Shown here: positions 13,949 to 20,000 of the stretch, piece after piece | Position numbering within the stretch: position 1 is the first letter of the stretch | Layout of the letters: every line of letters begins with the position of its first letter | IMG/VR virus record: IMGVR_UViG_3300017752_000005 | Origin: an uncultured virus (IMG/VR IMGVR_UViG_3300017752_000005) | Taxonomy: Duplodnaviria; Heunggongvirae; Uroviricota; Caudoviricetes | Length of the DNA stretch: 20,000 nt | Strand: one strand, 5' to 3' | The notes under the pieces: generated by a model | Databases searched by the model: none | What the model saw: only the letters and a program-made list of their open reading frames with translations | Told to the model about the DNA's origin: nothing | Made by a program: the position numbers and the translations under genes

Positions 13949-15157
13949 TTAGAACACATTTGGAATTACTTTACCATTATGGGCGACTTTGAATGGTCTT
14001 GCAGATGGGGAGAATAGTGTTTGATTGATATCTAATCCCATAGCATCTGCTATTGTTGCATTTAAGTCTGCTACCTGATAAGGTGACTCTTCTATCGCCA
14101 TAGCTTTATCGTCTGTTTTACCTATTGCTTTACCATCTATCTTTCCTCCAGCCATCATACATGAGAAGGCTCTTGGGTAGTGGTCGCGTCCAGTGTTGAC
14201 GTTGATTTTAGGTGTTCTACCAAATTCAGTAGCAACAACGATCATTGTATCTTCATAAAGACCTTTCGCTTTTAGATCATCAATAAGAGCAGCAATACCT
14301 TTGTCTACCTCTGGAAGCTTAGTAGCTAATCTATCAAAGTTTTCGGTGTGGGTATCCCAACCACCATGCATGACTTCAATGAAGTTTACTCCCTTTTCAA
14401 CCAAGCGACGAGCAAGCAAAAGGCTTTGCCCGAATCTTGTAGCCCCATATTTTTCAGATGTCTCTTTACTTTCTTGAGAGATATCAAAAACCGCTAAGTC
14501 TTCACTATCTAGAATATTAAAAGCCTCTGCATAAAAATCTCTATAAGAAGTAGCCGCATCGTTTGGCTCGAACTTAGAGTTTAGTAGATCAAGAGCATCT
14601 AGCCTATTGTTCAACAGCCTATCATCATATTTTAAATCAAAAGCACTTTTAGCCTTCAAAGGATCAGTGATAGGAAGGGGCGAGGTTCTAGCTGGCAAAA
14701 ACCCGTTCAATGGGTGAGACGGGTCAGGATTTATCAAAACATTATTAGGTAATGAATTATCATTAGTCAAAAGGTGGTTAGACCACGCTCCCAAAGAAGG
14801 ATGTATAATACTGCCCACTTTTCTGTAGCTTGTGTGGTGCAAGTATTTTCCCTCAGAGTGTGCGCCGGTCTGAGAGGTCATAGAATTAATCACAGCAAAA
14901 TTTTCTGCTCGTTCTGCCAATAAGGGCAAATTGTGACCGAATTTAATTCCATCAACCTTGGTGTCGATGATTTCTGTAGCACCCTTAACTTCAGCGTCGG
15001 ATTTTGGATCGAATGTGTCGATATGACTCATTCCCCCGTTCATGTAAATATAAATTACATTTTTTACCTTTGGTGTAGGCTTGCTTGCATAAGAATTAAA
15101 AGTAAGCCCTAAAGTAGAAGCTGCCAGAGTTTTTGCGAAGTCTCTTCTTGTATTCAT
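13949..15157 (-). CDS. DUF1501 family protein with Tat-like signal
   Basis: N-terminal TRRDF twin-arginine motif, VIYIYMNGGMSHIDTFDPK, LLARRLVEKGV.F, GGWDTH, TEFGRTPKIN..GRDH. Confidence 0.92.
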   Translation of the reverse strand: MNTRRDFAKTLAASTLGLTFNSYASKPTPKVKNVIYIYMNGGMSHIDTFDPKSDAEVKGATEIIDTKVDGIKFGHNLPLLAERAENFAVINSMTSQTGAHSEGKYLHHTSYRKVGSIIHPSLGAWSNHLLTNDNSLPNNVLINPDPSHPLNGFLPARTSPLPITDPLKAKSAFDLKYDDRLLNNRLDALDLLNSKFEPNDAATSYRDFYAEAFNILDSEDLAVFDISQESKETSEKYGATRFGQSLLLARRLVEKGVNFIEVMHGGWDTHTENFDRLATKLPEVDKGIAALIDDLKAKGLYEDTMIVVATEFGRTPKINVNTGRDHYPRAFSCMMAGGKIDGKAIGKTDDKAMAIEESPYQVADLNATIADAMGLDINQTLFSPSARPFKVAHNGKVIPNVF

Positions 15158-16725
15158 TGTATAAATAAAAATTCGTTGGAGTTAATTACCGCCCACACAA
15201 TATCAGCCGGTGAAAGTTGACGTAGAGCAGACTTCTCTTGTAGAGTTGGCTGTCTAGTGAGGGTAGATAAGAAAATATTCTCAATGGAAGGGTCTTTCAT
15301 CAAGATTGAATCTTTATGAGACAACGAATTTGTGACCTCTCCGTTGATAAGAAGTAAAACTTGACCAGAAGAGCCATTTACTGAGGAAGAATCAATCAGT
15401 TCCCGCTCTGAAGCCCCGAACTTCTTCAAAAAGTCGGTGCGTCTCTCTAAATCTGACGCTCTGACGATGGGTAAGCTTCCTATTTGCTTTGGTCGTGGTA
15501 TTTTTTTTGTAAAATCCCTATATTCTTCCATAGCGTCGATTGCGCCTTGTCCAGTTAACGATGCTAAGTCTAAATTTACAAAATCAGAATAACCAGAACG
15601 GTCGATGGGCGCTGGAACGCCACCAGCGATTGTTACCAAAGAGTCCCAAGCTTGCTCTGCGGTAAGCCTTCTAGTTTTTATACCGTTTTCTTGCTTAAAA
15701 GCGTTAGAGGTCACTAAAAAGTGCAAAAATAAGCGAACGTCATAATTTAATTCCTCAAATTTTACCGCGAGCTTGCGTGAAAGCTCTTCGTTTGTAGATT
15801 CAGCAATATCTACGTTAACTAATGGCGTGATAAGTGGGTCGCCAGTAACGAAGCCCCATAATCTGTTTGACGCTGCTACTGAGAAGTCGTGCTGTTTGAC
15901 AATCCATTCTGCAAAAACGGCTGAGTCACCACTCTTTACAACATCCCCGAAAGGGGTATATGGACTAACGGCACTACTAGGCTCTGCATCGTCATATCTG
16001 TAGTCATGGGGTAATTTTAAAACTCCATTTTTATTTTTGAAGCTACCATAACCATTGCCGCGCAAAAGTTGTCTGATTGCGTTGTCTATTCTATCGGTTT
16101 CTCTGATTTGTTTAACCTCTTCGTCAATTTTTCTGGAAATCTGACCAACAGAAGGGTCACGGGTAGTATTTTGTGCAAAAAACGCAGCACTCTGATAAAA
16201 GTCCATTTGAGTCCAATGACTGAAGGGATCATCATGGCATTGGGCGCAAGAAAGGTCTTTGCCAAGAAAAACTTGCATAGTATAAGAAAAATTATCCAGT
16301 GGCATACCATTGTCCCGCGCATAGTAACCTGCGGCTGGATTTTCTATCATTTTGCCTTCTGCGGTCAGCATTTCGCGAACCATTTGATCGTAAGGCTTAT
16401 TTTCCCTAATATTATTTTTTACCCAATCAATATAAGGATAAAACTTCAAAAACCCCACACCGTCAATGTTCGCCTTGATTCTAAACAGATCAGCATAGTA
16501 ATTATAAAAAGACTGAACATAGTCTTCGCTTTTAAGAAGATTGACCACTAACTTGTCATGGTCAGGACTTTGTAAATAATTTTTAGTCTCTTCCAAGGTA
16601 GGAATTCTACCTGCTAGAGTTAAATATGTCCTTCTCAATAAAACTTCGTCTGAAACTTGCTCACTATGAGCATTACCTGTGAATAAAAGGACAGCCGCCA
16701 AGATTTTTACGAAAAACTTTCCCAT
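15154..16725 (-). CDS. DUF1549/DUF1553 (Planctomycete PSCyt2/PSD1-type) protein
   Basis: Signal peptide, LRRTYLTLAGRIPT, NKPYDQMVREML, FLG..L.CAQCHDDPF..WTQ.DFY...AFF, NRLW, RRLTAEQ.WDS, F.STLTR.PT and W...NSNEFLF. Confidence 0.9.
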   Translation of the reverse strand: MGKFFVKILAAVLLFTGNAHSEQVSDEVLLRRTYLTLAGRIPTLEETKNYLQSPDHDKLVVNLLKSEDYVQSFYNYYADLFRIKANIDGVGFLKFYPYIDWVKNNIRENKPYDQMVREMLTAEGKMIENPAAGYYARDNGMPLDNFSYTMQVFLGKDLSCAQCHDDPFSHWTQMDFYQSAAFFAQNTTRDPSVGQISRKIDEEVKQIRETDRIDNAIRQLLRGNGYGSFKNKNGVLKLPHDYRYDDAEPSSAVSPYTPFGDVVKSGDSAVFAEWIVKQHDFSVAASNRLWGFVTGDPLITPLVNVDIAESTNEELSRKLAVKFEELNYDVRLFLHFLVTSNAFKQENGIKTRRLTAEQAWDSLVTIAGGVPAPIDRSGYSDFVNLDLASLTGQGAIDAMEEYRDFTKKIPRPKQIGSLPIVRASDLERRTDFLKKFGASERELIDSSSVNGSSGQVLLLINGEVTNSLSHKDSILMKDPSIENIFLSTLTRQPTLQEKSALRQLSPADIVWAVINSNEFLFIQ

Positions 16726-16834: not shown

Positions 16835-16861
16835 TCCCGATTTTTTGGGATTTATTTTTTT
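16835..16861 (+). terminator. Possible weak intrinsic terminator
   Basis: TCCCGA-TTTT-TTGGGA hairpin followed by TTTATTTTTTT. Confidence 0.3.
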
Positions 16862-17046
16862 GGGGAATGGAATTAGTGATTATATGATTTTAAATAAGGG
16901 GGAGGGGGTATGTTGAGTGTGGTGGGGATGTAATTTAATTTTTTGAGATTGGGTTGTTGACAATGTGAACCACCCCCCCCTGATTGTCTAACATAACCGT
17001 AAAACCCTACATTCTAAATAACCCACCCCCATAGAGCTATGTGTCT

Positions 17047-17118
17047 ATGGCGTGATCGCGTAAGCTAATCTAATAAAAAAGAACTTGCGATTCTCTTGTG
17101 GTGTGGTATAGTTACAGC
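17047..17118 (+). promoter_or_regulatory. Cassette promoter 1 (18-bp palindrome, A-tract, -35, extended -10)
   Basis: ATGGCGT-GATC-GCGTAAG 17047-17064; TTGCGA 17085-17090; TGgTATAGT with -10 at 17107-17112; ATG 17119. Confidence 0.85.
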
Positions 17119-17259
17119 ATGAACGAACTAAAAGTAGATGACCAAGTAAACTTCAAAGGCGCATGGGCTATCGTGGCTCATGTCGATGAAGACGGGACTG
17201 TATGGCTCTTCGATGAGGACGGGGGCGAGCATGAGGCCACCGCTGATCAGCTTGATTAG
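17119..17259 (+). CDS. Small acidic protein, 46 aa (MNELKVDDQVNFKGAW...ADQLD), possibly an SH3/Tudor-like beta fold
   Basis: Not in the ORF track; translated by hand. It runs from just after promoter 1 to just before cassette 2. Confidence 0.75.
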   Translation: MNELKVDDQVNFKGAWAIVAHVDEDGTVWLFDEDGGEHEATADQLD

Positions 17260-17262
17260 CAC

Positions 17263-17333
17263 ATGGCGCGATTGCGCCATACAATACAATAAAAAAGAAC
17301 TTGCGATTAAATAAATCTGTGGTATAGTTAGGC
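17263..17333 (+). promoter_or_regulatory. Cassette promoter 2
   Basis: ATGGCGC-GATT-GCGCCAT 17263-17280 (perfect arms); TTGCGA 17301-17306; TATAGT 17323-17328; ATG 17334. Confidence 0.85.
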
Positions 17334-17456
17334 ATGAAAGAAATTATAAAAGAGTTGTCCGAATTGTTCCTCTATGTCTTCGTGGTCTTCGTGATGATCG
17401 CGGTTGCCGTAAGCACCATACTAAATCCTGACTGGACTTTTTCCCTCCTTAACTAA
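17334..17456 (+). CDS. Small single-TM membrane protein, 40 aa (MKEIIKELSELFLYVFVVFVMIAVAV...)
   Basis: Translated by hand. The stop codon overlaps the next cassette palindrome. Confidence 0.7.
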   Translation: MKEIIKELSELFLYVFVVFVMIAVAVSTILNPDWTFSLLN

Positions 17457-17527
17457 TAGCGCGATTGCGCCATATAACAGAATAAAAAACAATTTGCTTT
17501 TAACTCTAACCTGTGGTAAATTTAGAC
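17456..17527 (+). promoter_or_regulatory. Cassette promoter 3
   Basis: ATAGCGC-GATT-GCGCCAT 17456-17473; TTGCTT 17494-17499; TAAATT 17517-17522; ATG 17528. Confidence 0.8.
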
Positions 17528-17743
17528 ATGATCAAGGAAATGACTCAAGACCAGTTTAACGCACTCGCTGCAAAGCACTATGCGAAGCAGTGCAAGGTTA
17601 ACCCTTCTTACCGCGACCACGTAAGATATATCAACGCATTGGGTGACGCTACTTGCCAAGTAGAAATCGAGAAGGAGTATAGCCTTCTCAACGTGAGCGT
17701 TTACCTAAAGGGACGCGACTATCTCGCAAGCCTTAACAAGTAA
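17528..17743 (+). CDS. Hypothetical protein, 71 aa (start moved from 17513 to 17528)
   Basis: ATG lies 5 nt after the -10 box, as in the other cassettes. Confidence 0.75.
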   Translation: MIKEMTQDQFNALAAKHYAKQCKVNPSYRDHVRYINALGDATCQVEIEKEYSLLNVSVYLKGRDYLASLNK

Positions 17744-17749
17744 AACAAT

Positions 17750-17959
17750 ATGACCATCGAACAAGTAAAGAACAAGATGCTTCGCCTCAAGTCCGAGATG
17801 GATCGGATAGAGGACGAGCGCGGATTCTCTAACGTGCCAAGCAATCTCAAGATGCAGATGTGGGAGTTAAAGAATAGCTTGCGCGCCAAGCAACGCAACG
17901 CGCCAGAGATGTCGGATGGCGTGAGAGATGCGCTGGCGAACCTTACGGTTCGTCGGTAG
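17750..17959 (+). CDS. Hypothetical helical protein, 69 aa
   Basis: Follows the previous gene by 6 nt as second cistron. Confidence 0.7.
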   Translation: MTIEQVKNKMLRLKSEMDRIEDERGFSNVPSNLKMQMWELKNSLRAKQRNAPEMSDGVRDALANLTVRR

Positions 17960-18010
17960 TGTTAGTGTTAGTGTTAGTGTTAGTGCTAGTGTTAGTGCTA
18001 GTGTTAGTGC
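17957..18010 (+). repeat. Hexanucleotide microsatellite (TAGTGY)x9
   Basis: Nine tandem TAGTGT/TAGTGC units starting at the TAG stop of the upstream ORF, followed by degenerate TAACGC TAGT. Confidence 0.95.
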
Positions 18011-18043
18011 TAACGCTAGTCTCGTTGCACAGAAAAGATAAGT

Positions 18044-18122
18044 CGTAAGTCGTTGAGGCTTAGGGAGTTACGTCGGCGCGCCCCGCCCGTCAGCGTAACT
18101 CGTTGACGCTTAAGCAGTTACG
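18044..18122. repeat. Palindrome cluster A: two 29-bp 13-3-13 palindromes with 21-bp GC linker
   Basis: CGTAAGTCGTTGA-GGC-TTAGGGAGTTACG (18044-18072), linker TCGGCGCGCCCCGCCCGTCAG, then CGTAACTCGTTGA-CGC-TTAAGCAGTTACG (18094-18122). Confidence 0.9.
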
Positions 18123-18154
18123 AAGATACCGATTCAGCTACCATGCCAAGCCAC

Positions 18155-18226
18155 CATACGCGATCACGCCATGTAATCTAATAAAAAAGAAGTTGCGATT
18201 ACCTTATGATGTGGTAAATTATATAC
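18155..18226 (+). promoter_or_regulatory. Cassette promoter 4
   Basis: CATACGC-GATC-ACGCCAT 18155-18172; TTGCGA 18193-18198; TAAATT 18215-18220; ATG 18227. Confidence 0.85.
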
Positions 18227-18457
18227 ATGAACAAGACCTTTACTAATAACAACGGCGAGCGCGTCGAGTGCGTCGAGATCGCTACGCTATACCCTAGCGA
18301 GGCATTCCAGAACCGCAACGCGCAAGAGCGTCAAGCGGCTGCTGACGAGAACAACGATGGCAAGTTGGGCGAAGTGTGCCGCTTCGGTGGTGGTGGCGAC
18401 CATCAGCTTTTGGTGGACATCGACAGCAAGGTGTGGTGGGAGCAAGACTACAGGTAA
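18227..18457 (+). CDS. Hypothetical protein, 76 aa
   Basis: Starts 6 nt after the -10 box. The stop lies inside the next cassette palindrome. Confidence 0.75.
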   Translation: MNKTFTNNNGERVECVEIATLYPSEAFQNRNAQERQAAADENNDGKLGEVCRFGGGGDHQLLVDIDSKVWWEQDYR

Positions 18458-18524
18458 CGTGATCGCGCCATACCTAACACACAAAAACAATTTGACTTAT
18501 ACCAATACTGTGTTACATTATACC
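18454..18524 (+). promoter_or_regulatory. Cassette promoter 5
   Basis: GTAACGT-GATC-GCGCCAT 18454-18471; TTGACT 18492-18497; TACATT 18514-18519; ATG 18525. Confidence 0.85.
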
Positions 18525-18695
18525 ATGAACAAGAAAACATACATCATCACCCTCCTTGCTAACAACGGCGAAACTCACACCTTCAACTGGGAAGGAGAGG
18601 GTTTCTTTGCCGCTTGCAGGGATGCAATGGCATCGGTCGTGAAACTCCACGACGGGCGACAGTGGGAACTGGTAGAGGCCAAGCTCCTAGCTTAA
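18525..18695 (+). CDS. Hypothetical protein, 56 aa (MNKKTYIITLLANNGE...; true start of ORF-track 18357..18695)
   Basis: ATG lies 5 nt after the -10 box. Confidence 0.75.
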   Translation: MNKKTYIITLLANNGETHTFNWEGEGFFAACRDAMASVVKLHDGRQWELVEAKLLA

Positions 18696-18708
18696 CCACC
18701 TTGTAAAT

Positions 18709-18807
18709 ATGAAAGACATCTTTTCTCTAGCCATTCACGGAATCTACTGTATGCTTGCCATCATTCTCATTGCTCTCTTCGTTAACGTCATCCTAAACTT
18801 TTACTAA
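18709..18807 (+). CDS. Small single-TM membrane peptide, 32 aa (MKDIFSLAIHGIYCMLAIILIALFVNVILNFY)
   Basis: Translated by hand; TAATG coupling to the next ORF. Confidence 0.6.
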   Translation: MKDIFSLAIHGIYCMLAIILIALFVNVILNFY

Positions 18808-18983
18808 TGAACCAACAACATCTACGCTTTGCACGGTCCCACGATTGGGGCCGTGAGGCTTTCCTAAACAATGGAAGGCTCTTCATCATCAACAGCGAGC
18901 CAGCCGAATCTTACGGCGTGAGCCGTGGAGCTTGGATTGAGTTCACTTCCTTTGATAACCTCCGCGCATGGGCGGGATACTAA
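18807..18983 (+). CDS. Hypothetical protein, 58 aa (MNQQHLRFARSHDWG...FDNLRAWAGY)
   Basis: Translated by hand and coupled to the upstream stop. The HDW...LR.WAGY pattern resembles small phage hypotheticals (from recall, unverified). Confidence 0.7.
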   Translation: MNQQHLRFARSHDWGREAFLNNGRLFIINSEPAESYGVSRGAWIEFTSFDNLRAWAGY

Positions 18984-18991
18984 AAAACAAA

Positions 18992-19198
18992 ATGAGATAC
19001 TTCCTCCTAACACTAACACTGTCACCAATGCTTGCACTAGCAAACGCACCACAGCCACGCGACTTCAGACCGCTGTTGCCTAACAACACCATAAAAAAAC
19101 AAGAGTTAGAGTTACCGAGTTGGGACGGCAGCGAGACACACCGCGCACCCGAAGCCAGTCTGTTTCCAACCCGCGACAAACGCGCTGTAAGTCGTTGA
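18992..19198 (+). CDS. Small secreted-type hypothetical protein, 68 aa (start moved from 18968 to 18992)
   Basis: Signal-peptide-like MRYFLLTLTLSPMLALA. The TGA stop lies within the first palindrome of cluster B. Confidence 0.6.
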   Translation: MRYFLLTLTLSPMLALANAPQPRDFRPLLPNNTIKKQELELPSWDGSETHRAPEASLFPTRDKRAVSR

Positions 19199-19264
19199 AT
19201 ATCAACGAGTTAGGGCTGCGCGCCCCCCGCGCCGACGTAACTCACTGATGGTCAATGAGTTACG
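19186..19264. repeat. Palindrome cluster B
   Basis: TGTAAGTCGTTGA-ATA-TCAACGAGTTAGG (19186-19214), 21-bp linker GCTGCGCGCCCCCCGCGCCGA, then CGTAACTCACTGA-TGG-TCAATGAGTTACG (19236-19264). Confidence 0.9.
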
Positions 19265-19296
19265 CAGATAGCCTTTCAGCAACCATGCCAAGCACT

Positions 19297-19367
19297 AATA
19301 CGCAATCGCGTATAGCTAACAGGCAAAAAAAGAATTGCGCGCTACAGAATTTGTGGTATATTGGGGC
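19297..19367 (+). promoter_or_regulatory. Cassette promoter 6
   Basis: AATACGC-AATC-GCGTATA 19297-19314; TTGCGC 19335-19340; TATATT 19357-19362; ATG 19368. Confidence 0.85.
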
Positions 19368-19547
19368 ATGACATTAGAACAGCAGAAAGCATATGACGCA
19401 GGTTTCGAGGGAACCGCCGAACGCGAGGAGATCGCCCCCAACTTCCTCCAGTTTTTTGACGAGGGCGTGGCTGACGAGCGCGCAGTCGCCCAAGCGGAGA
19501 TGGCAGACTGGCATCAGGAAACATCTGGTTACGGGTGGGACGCATAA
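19368..19547 (+). CDS. Small acidic protein, 59 aa (start moved from 19335 to 19368)
   Basis: ATG lies 5 nt after the -10 box. The TAA stop lies inside the first palindrome of cluster C. Confidence 0.75.
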   Translation: MTLEQQKAYDAGFEGTAEREEIAPNFLQFFDEGVADERAVAQAEMADWHQETSGYGWDA

Positions 19548-19669
19548 CCCGTTGAGCGTCAACGAGTTACGGGGGCGCGCCCCTCTCGTCGGCGTAAGTC
19601 GTTAAGCCTCAGTGAGTTACGACAATAGACCTCGCCGCCTCGTAAGTCGTTGAGCATCAATAACTTATG
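19543..19669. repeat. Palindrome cluster C (three copies)
   Basis: Copies at 19543-19571, 19593-19621 and 19641-19669, with linkers of 21 bp (GGGGCGCGCCCCTCTCGTCGG) and 19 bp. Confidence 0.9.
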
Positions 19670-19683
19670 TAATATATTACATT

Positions 19684-19779
19684 CTATTTGTTATTTATCT
19701 ATTTGCTATTTGCTATTTAGCTATTTGTTGTTTAGCTATTTGCTATTTGTTGTTTTATTTGGCATTCTATTTGGCATTG
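19684..19779 (+). repeat. Degenerate T-rich tandem repeat (GCTATTT-like 7-8-mers)
   Basis: ctatttg ttatttat ctatttg ctatttg ctatttag ctatttg ... ggcattctatttggcattg. Confidence 0.8.
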
Positions 19780-19853
19780 TTGGCGTGATCGCGTGATGTG
19801 ATTTGAATAAAAAATCATTTGCAACCTAAATTTAAATAGTGTATATTATCACC
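19780..19853 (+). promoter_or_regulatory. Cassette promoter 7 (also contains GTGTAT)
   Basis: TTGGCGT-GATC-GCGTGAT 19780-19797; TTGCAA 19819-19824; TATATT 19842-19847; ATG 19854. Confidence 0.8.
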
Positions 19854-19985
19854 ATGAGCAAGCCTCTCAAGCATAAAGCTGCCTTTGGTCGCGGCCCTTC
19901 CTTTGTATTGAACAAGGGAACTAAGGTGGTGTCTTCTAAGAAGAAAGAAGAAAATAAAAATGCTTGTAGGAAAAAGGATTGGTGA
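19854..19985 (+). CDS. Small very basic protein, 43 aa (MSKPLKHKAAFGRGPSF...NACRKKDW)
   Basis: Translated by hand; ATG lies 6 nt after the -10 box. Confidence 0.7.
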   Translation: MSKPLKHKAAFGRGPSFVLNKGTKVVSSKKKEENKNACRKKDW

Positions 19986-20000
19986 GATGTCGGACACTAT

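Follow-up and report, generated by a model that had tools for sequence, protein, structure and literature searches.

What binds the repeated palindromes in the early region of an uncultured marine tailed phage, and what might they do there? We analyzed a 20,000-nucleotide stretch of the virus record IMGVR_UViG_3300017752_000005 (here called the window), in which an original prediction had described seven 29-bp palindromes, each with two 13-bp arms around a 3-bp center, as composite sites for a protein that it left unnamed. These palindromes, which start at positions 18044, 18094, 19186, 19236, 19543, 19593 and 19641 and form three clusters, were confirmed in the sequence: a search with a 25-base core pattern, allowing 3 mismatches at most, matched exactly these seven positions (200 shuffles gave a mean of 0.00 and a largest count of 0). 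Each palindrome is very probably bound by a host bending protein of the integration host factor (IHF) type. Our best explanation, held with about even confidence, is that each palindrome constitutes one site for a homodimer of this protein and that the pairs fold DNA and organize early transcription units within a likely terminal repeat. The clusters, to which no strand is assigned, are as follows.

18044..18122, cluster A: two symmetric predicted IHF-type sites (18044-18072 and 18094-18122) and a 21-bp GC linker
19186..19264, cluster B: two sites (19186-19214 and 19236-19264) and a 21-bp GC linker
19543..19669, cluster C: three sites (19543-19571, 19593-19621 and 19641-19669) and linkers of 21 and 19 bp

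The palindromes as DNA sites

The regularity described for the window was borne out. All 14 half-sites keep TAA at positions 3 to 5, G or C at position 6, T at position 11 and A at position 13; the palindromes are spaced by 50, 50, 50 and 48 bp, with linkers of 21, 21, 21 and 19 bp. The arms depart from perfect symmetry at 1 to 4 of the 13 positions, including three G.G mismatches at position 6. The conserved directional GC linker that had been proposed stood only within the window, where each of the three 21-bp linkers has a 9-base GC motif that starts at its position 4; the exact motif is peculiar to the window phage and occurs on the sense strand of 3 of 80 21-bp linkers across the family. 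Family linkers of this length are 89% G+C and run from G-rich to C-rich, and directionality is only partial because a sense-strand C-run is present in 56 of the 80 and a G-run in 18. Placement of the clusters at the ends of transcription units was correct insofar as two open reading frames (ORFs) stop within a palindrome (18992-19198 with TGA, 19368-19547 with TAA); a position a short distance upstream of promoters describes the clusters better. About nine tandem copies of a 6-bp unit (17957-18012) directly precede cluster A, and a partial inverted copy of this unit lies inside an ORF at 19007-19042.

A motif search across viral and bacterial genomes, in which co-occurring genes were noted, established a family-wide element. 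Scanning of viral contigs with the exact pattern yielded at least 185 stretches (about 430 estimated), and a relaxed scan of 180 loci together with the window detected 202 distinct pairs, along with 82 singles; the locus L176 is identical to the window and is not independent of it. The spacing was 50 bp in 117 of the 202 pairs and between 38 and 60 bp in the others, and a single spacing was kept in 31 of 35 loci with at least two pairs. No match to the element was found among 50,697 cultured phage records. Linkers of the 57- to 58-bp spacing class (L011, L037 and L188) contain a perfect 6-3-6 GC hairpin; those of the 42- and 52-bp classes are self-complementary too, and 50-bp linkers are barely so.

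Every copy can be folded (mean of about -9 kcal/mol) and is intergenic, as would be expected of RNA hairpins, terminators or RNase III sites. However, the agreement between arms within 338 palindromes was no higher than for independent draws, and in 122 oriented pairs we counted 2.87 arm mismatches compared to 2.84 ± 0.05 after re-dealing arms within loci. In the same pairs, G.T and A.C mismatches were equally frequent (200 versus 197), and folding energies were equal for the sense and antisense strands. A T-run 3′ of the first hairpin was found in 0 of 122 cases and 3′ of the second in 15 of 122, the same as on the other strand, and an Rfam search of the window returned two chance matches only, neither on the element. 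The earlier statement that the arms show no clear covariation or strand bias was thus upheld. Because the arms display neither selection for pairing nor strand bias, we regard the palindromes as double-stranded DNA sites for a protein; the RNA reading is largely refuted and retains a very small probability.

Three further candidates were not supported. A GNA-triloop DNA hairpin at the center was ruled out, as the centers follow NWA/TWN and the arms are not selected to pair. Membership in a described repetitive extragenic palindrome (REP) or REPIN family, which would have removed the novelty of the element, was not found: a GTAG or CGTC tag occurs in 3 of 336 flanks each, a RAYT/Y1 transposase in 0 of 5 records, and the stems show no selection. 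Partition loading at a parS-like site, which the original prediction had listed, lost its footing, as a cognate phage ParB (PF02195) was found in 0 of 5 phage records.

The likely binder and its single sites in bacteria

IHF recognizes the consensus WATCARnnnnTTR and kinks DNA at two steps 9 bp apart, according to the available parts of three sources (bioRxiv 10.1101/382655, PMC9519438, PMC7581858). We compared this consensus with 430 half-sites that have no match to the seed pattern and for which the filter demanded only AA at positions 4 and 5. Position 11 was T and position 10 was T or C in all 430, and position 3 was T or C in 427. These bases correspond to AR and TTR in the IHF consensus and occur in mirror image on the two halves. 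The center bases, which were never constrained in the search, fit WA in 248 of 338 palindromes (22 to 31% expected), and 207 of 311 family palindromes match the full consensus perfectly on at least one strand; in the window, the first site of cluster B (19186-19214) does so on the plus strand. The Y|T and A|R steps, 9 bp apart, are invariant in the 430 half-sites, and the IHF kinks would probably be placed on them. The 5′ A-tract that is found in many, but not all, IHF sites is lacking; a second TTR stands in its place, and the linker side is GC-rich.

The HU/IHF family (PF00216) was found in 0 of 18 virus records. All five bacterial genomes examined carry exactly one HU/IHF-family match with an arginine at the IHF-β-like position, which aligns to the EIRGFG of IHF-β, where the arginine has a role in reading TTR. 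One HU/IHF-family protein was tested against the PDB, and IHF was its best match. A single IHF-type gene would give a homodimer and, with it, a symmetric site.

Bacterial genome contigs contained 43 exact matches, among which 8 loci are phage-like pairs and 21 are Fibrobacter singles. The palindrome adjoins tRNA 3′ ends at four loci and tyrosine integrases at two. At one locus in a Verrucomicrobiales metagenome-assembled genome (MAG), it lies 8 to 36 bp from a CRISPR repeat beside cas1; the IHF site of the E. coli CRISPR leader is placed at -9 to -35 in the available text of PMC5224486. An Akkermansia MAG gave 14 matches, one of which, together with a weaker second copy, falls within a 165-bp cluster of seven DnaA-box-like 9-mers. 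This AT-rich stretch (L250:1811-2008), with its box cluster and two IHF-type palindromes, is a candidate oriC, datA or DARS. Ten matches in the same MAG lie between paired second dyads 142 to 159 bp apart, the 7-bp cores of which are locus specific and identical in inverted orientation at 10 of 10 loci (11 loci were examined, one of which was cut by a contig end; the other three matches have no dyad pair). We predict these ten loci to be inversion switches. The palindrome is 29 to 30 bp from the nearer dyad at seven loci and 37 to 38 bp at three and, because it lies 29 to 38 bp from the predicted crossover dyad, is presumably an accessory site there and not the crossover site. IHF likewise sits beside the core in lambda att and in fimS. 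Akkermansia invertons have been documented (PMC13343947, PMC11892184), and the available text of neither paper mentions IHF; there may be overlap between the palindrome and the "Akkermansia promoter motif" published for invertons. The dyad of the ten switches (L246-L248 and L251-L257) is unlike the published A. muciniphila motif, and several switches lie beside capsule-type genes.

Among 151 Verrucomicrobiota genomes, 17 match within 2 mismatches (control, 1), mostly with one copy; therefore, the palindrome is not a chromosome-wide repeat. The 21 Fibrobacter loci (L181-L221) are intergenic singles, often situated upstream of genes for large Ig/cadherin or repeat surface proteins, and no convincing inverted repeats were found around them. 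Two unrelated-looking proteobacterial prophage-like loci (L017:4999-5070 and L218:2960-3030) have a single palindrome beside a similar G-run motif, possibly a packaging site. Taken together, the palindrome appears to occur where a bending accessory factor is needed, in a CRISPR leader, a DnaA-box cluster, tRNA/integrase junctions and predicted switches. The original view of a DNA-protein site thus stands, and the consensus match and the bacterial contexts narrow the binder down to what is very probably a host IHF-type bending protein.

The bacterial singles sit in recombination loci, and 24 of 36 element pairs with a homologous flank share one flank only (a count uncontrolled at other anchors). 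Both points would fit pairs that serve as recombination sites, or as bending accessories to one, and shuffle early gene cassettes. Against this role, which we consider improbable, neither a tyrosine recombinase (PF00589, 0 of 5 records) nor a serine recombinase nor a RAYT was found in five records, three of them complete. Rearrangements at the 3-bp centers, the earlier proposal, were sought in the contigs of eight runs, and no joints were seen. Flank switch points vary (in the flank, in the linker or beyond), and there is no shared overlap because the centers differ between copies. A tyrosine-recombinase crossover site was rejected on the same variation and on the bacterial loci, in which the shared 7-bp core belongs to a separate dyad. 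A contig joint from 19577 to 18044, like the loose ends seen at the edges of elements, most likely comes from other phages that have only the element in common with the window phage.

That the same site occurs in the CRISPR leader and the DnaA-box cluster of likely host relatives would also suit a decoy array, as originally listed, that keeps host IHF from CRISPR adaptation, oriC or inversion switches by titration. Each genome copy carries about 14 to 20 sites, compared to nearly 1,000 specific sites on the E. coli chromosome (PMC6606824, available text). A sink, moreover, needs neither fixed pair spacing nor phased neighbors. We therefore hold titration, on these numbers, to be very improbable.

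The early region and the role of the pairs

The window is a piece of a large tailed phage with genes for an amidase, a terminase, an ERCC4 nuclease, PhoH, tail-like proteins and DUF1501, DUF1549 and DUF1553 proteins, the last three of which suggest a host from the Planctomycetes-Verrucomicrobia-Chlamydiae group. A phage-borne DUF1501 gene and DUF1549/DUF1553 pair (13949-16725) adjoins the predicted genome end. The PhoH-to-terminase operon is common to two related genomes, G002 and G004 (terminase identities of 58% and 48%), and the terminase is 23 to 26% identical to the best listed cultured-phage matches. The element is confined to one early-promoter island per genome: all matches of G003, G004 and G008 lie in one 8- to 12-kb island, and the two islands of G002 are probably a single one split by assembly overlap. 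The distance between clusters has a median of 1,159 bp, whatever the number of promoters. The features of this region in the window are listed below.

17085..20000, plus strand: early array of co-oriented predicted promoters and small ORFs without a Pfam match, with the clusters lying within it
18193..18229, plus strand: predicted leaderless sigma70-type early promoter, -35 70 bp past cluster A, ATG at 18227
19335..19370, plus strand: predicted early promoter, -35 70 bp past cluster B, ATG at 19368
19819..19856, plus strand: predicted early promoter, -35 149 bp past cluster C, ATG at 19854
18144..18149, minus strand: inward-facing TTGGCA, 21 bp outside cluster A
19286..19291, minus strand: inward-facing TTGGCA, 21 bp outside cluster B
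16898..16907, plus strand: conserved G-tract ahead of the array, at the estimated depth step; predicted left genome end and start of a long terminal repeat
19684..19780, plus strand: run of about 10 TATTTG/TATTTA repeats, iteron-like, between cluster C and the next promoter

From 17085 onward, eight co-oriented sigma70-type promoter matches each lie 5 to 7 bases ahead of an ATG. Predicted promoters of this kind, consensus sigma70-like matches with an AT-rich upstream region, follow all three window clusters, and across the family the predicted -35 lies 20 to 160 bp downstream of the pair in 66 scored elements, compared to 2 in the opposite direction. Terminator-like hairpins precede 31 of 128 pairs (9 in the control). 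Each early -35 is preceded, at a constant distance, by a short near-palindrome that is followed by an A-tract; copies are at 17048-17062, 17264-17278, 17457-17471, 18156-18170, 18455-18469, 19298-19312 and 19781-19795.

The flanks also hold promoter-like sites that face the element. In 59 of 260 flanks, inward TTGAC was found 27 to 33 bp away from the element, compared to at most 13 in other 7-bp bins and 3 for the outward direction; it is present at this distance in 23 of 39 contigs, and side peaks recur about 10 bp apart (with the main peak removed, P of 0.0005). In 31 of 75 cases, a 16-bp spacer leads to TA (shuffles, 6.5; maximum, 18), and the predicted +1 would land on the palindrome edge. 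The -7 T, a base that matters for promoter melting, occurs at 0 of 31 of these inward sites and at 21 of 24 and 28 of 32 outward-facing promoters; once the T content nearby is taken into account, this shortage is modest (P of 0.035), and the 11 contigs involved are related. The TTGGCA sequences at clusters A and B are probably the window phage's version of this phased -35-like element. When the inward TGGCA was read as a sigma54 site, 4 of 332 flanks had the pattern at a gap of 20 to 21 together with a -12-like element, two of them from the window phage.

Contig depth rose over the early array from 16.5 to 40.1, from 18.3 to 45.1 and from 17.4-20.5 to 34.6 in the three usable runs (2.0- to 2.5-fold, 3 of 3) and by about 2-fold in three of four further runs, the fourth being flat. 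Two-level mixing placed the step at 16.83 to 16.92 kb in two runs and at 15.95 kb in the third. Run X19, with flat depth, and run X4, in which only the early part was covered, do not support a terminal repeat. The doubled depth from about 16.9 kb is consistent with a long terminal repeat, bearing in mind that depth was read from contigs only, which cannot display ends, and that a second phage sharing the region could give the same rise. The early module of SPO1 is located in a long terminal repeat (PMC3896407, available text). In six other contigs, the array is likewise preceded by the G-tract found at 16898 in the window, which is a candidate terminase end signal. A G-tract, often followed by a C-tract, was noted ahead of the early array in the window (16860-17040) and in L011, L020, L030, L036, L074/L075 and L238.

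Based on the positions of the pairs, upstream of promoters and after terminator-like hairpins, we propose that they fold and insulate the early units. A host IHF-type homodimer would bind each palindrome, with both sites of a pair occupied; its two proline residues would be inserted at the Y|T and A|R steps on either side of the central 9 bp, and the TTR on both flanks would result from the identity of the subunits. A pair at fixed spacing would then bend the DNA into a double U-turn, by which the strong early transcription units of the likely terminal repeat would be kept apart and organized. About every 1.2 kb, such a bound pair could serve as a roadblock and as a pin for transcription-driven supercoils, and it might keep the flanking inward-facing promoter-like sites, which lack the -7 T, silent. 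In simulations, IHF pins plectonemes (PMC9519438, available text). Because the elements share sequence, they may also act as passive exchange points for gene cassettes.

Several observations weigh against this explanation. In the window, only one of the seven palindromes fits WATCARnnnnTTR perfectly and the other six have 1 or 2 mismatches, in keeping with weak centers; arm positions 6 to 9, which are N in the consensus and none of which E. coli IHF requires, are conserved as well. The single-gene count on which the homodimer relies comes from incomplete MAGs, and 134 of the 151 Verrucomicrobiota genomes have no close match. Pair spacing varies between phages from 42 to 60 bp and places the sites on different helical faces; therefore, no single rigid shape is conserved. 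Finally, the distance to the nearest forward promoter was not significantly phased after removal of duplicates (P of about 0.15, n = 73), the only phasing among outward or forward sites being that of outward TTGAC within 62 bp (z of 8.3, n = 49).

The main rival keeps the same IHF binder and assigns it to DNA entry: host IHF, and RNA polymerase parked at the inward nonfiring sites, would bind a first-entering terminal repeat about every kilobase and ratchet, compact or pace the injection. This injection idea, which had been raised before, gains from the depth rise and the other terminal-repeat evidence, from the confinement of the sites to one 10- to 12-kb island per genome, and from a cluster distance that is independent of promoter number. 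However, the depth is known from contigs only, the tight coupling to promoter-like sites favors transcription, and a ratchet needs no pairs at fixed spacing; we judge an entry role to be possible but unlikely. A bolder combination, in which lytic phages scaffold their first-injected DNA with host IHF U-turns, two per repeat unit, and with nonfiring sigma70 promoters on either side that park RNA polymerase where each bend begins or ends, is rather unlikely in our estimate. If it were true, the entering DNA would be pulled in or paced, polymerase would be fed to the early promoters nearby, and the host IHF level would be a growth-state switch.

Some clusters, together with adjoining TATTTG repeats, might instead be replication origins or sites of terminal-repeat processing. 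At least three TATTTG/TATTTA repeats adjoin 5 of 11 triple clusters, with 10 at the window triple, and 24 of 178 pairs; IHF acts at oriC, datA and DARS2 (PMC11724364, available text). Most pairs, however, have no such repeats, 4 to 10 pairs per genome exceed the need for an origin, and the skew extremes lie off the island in G002 and G004. We regard an origin function as quite improbable. Folding and insulation of the early units remain our preferred role for the pairs.

Comparison with known systems

The known helper role of IHF concerns temperate phages and mobile elements. Here, an abundant family of uncultured phages invests in 4 to 10 paired copies of a putative IHF site in its early region, with no recombinase to serve, and in the hosts the same motif is also present in a CRISPR leader, at an origin-like locus and within predicted phase-variation switches. 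The element supplies a sequence definition that can be tested for IHF of Verrucomicrobia and related phyla, whose version of the site is apparently symmetric; the inward promoters that lack one melting base offer a sharp and cheap in vitro handle. We found no description in the literature of symmetric IHF sites arranged in pairs within the early region of a phage, nor of IHF having a structural part in how a large, apparently lytic phage expresses its early genes or delivers its DNA; the paper on CRISPR leader motifs and the supplement of PMC11892184 lay outside this search. What appears to be new comprises the bacterial single copies in IHF contexts, the doubled depth from about 16.9 kb and, in relatives, the phased inward TTGACA promoters without a -7 T.

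Compared to established IHF sites (the E. coli consensus and the lambda H′ site), the palindromes have the invariant consensus bases, a 9-bp core between the Y|T and A|R steps, a length of about 29 bp and single copies in IHF-type contexts. Unlike these sites, they are fully symmetric, with TTR on both sides, lack an A-tract, conserve N positions and lie in GC-rich surroundings, and the phage copies are always paired at a phage-specific spacing and arrayed through the early region of a lytic phage. Two IHF sites are also found in type I-F CRISPR leaders, in which a U-bend of about 150 bp and a loop present flanking motifs to a partner (bioRxiv 10.1101/2023.05.26.542337, available text). In contrast to those leaders, the phage elements have neither a Cas integrase nor a CRISPR repeat, their flanks carry promoter-like motifs, and each genome has many copies.

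TF1 of phage SPO1 reportedly has preferred sites in the terminal redundancy. Like SPO1, whose small early genes with host-type promoters lie in a long terminal repeat (PMC3896407, available text), the window phage is predicted to have such an arrangement. Unlike SPO1, which encodes the HU-like TF1 (PMC6606824, available text), the 18 virus records contain no PF00216 protein. The promoter-early stem-loop (PeSL) cassettes of the T4-type phages RB49 and phi1 resemble the present arrays in their repeated intergenic elements, sigma70-like promoters, variable early region, poly-G/poly-C tracts and likely use as swap points (PMC2839356). PeSL cassettes are exchanged, and form mini-circles, through recombination between elements; the flank switching near the present elements (24 of 36 homologous pairs, uncontrolled) resembles this, although no joints appeared in contigs. 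PeSL stem-loops, however, are tested RNA terminators, whereas the palindromes described here show no pairing selection, strand bias or U-tract; the available text of the PeSL paper mentions IHF 0 times.

E. coli itself has an IHF-binding type of REP-based bacterial interspersed mosaic element (BIME), known as RIB or RIP. REP/BIME sequences are likewise intergenic palindromes in fixed composites at the ends of transcription units (PMC3733652, available text). Unlike in those repeats, there is no GTAG/CGTC tag, RAYT or stem selection here, and the palindromes themselves are the IHF-type sites. By consensus and context, the element would work as an IHF site without an A-tract, and it behaves neither as a PeSL nor as a REP, a recombinase core or a parS.

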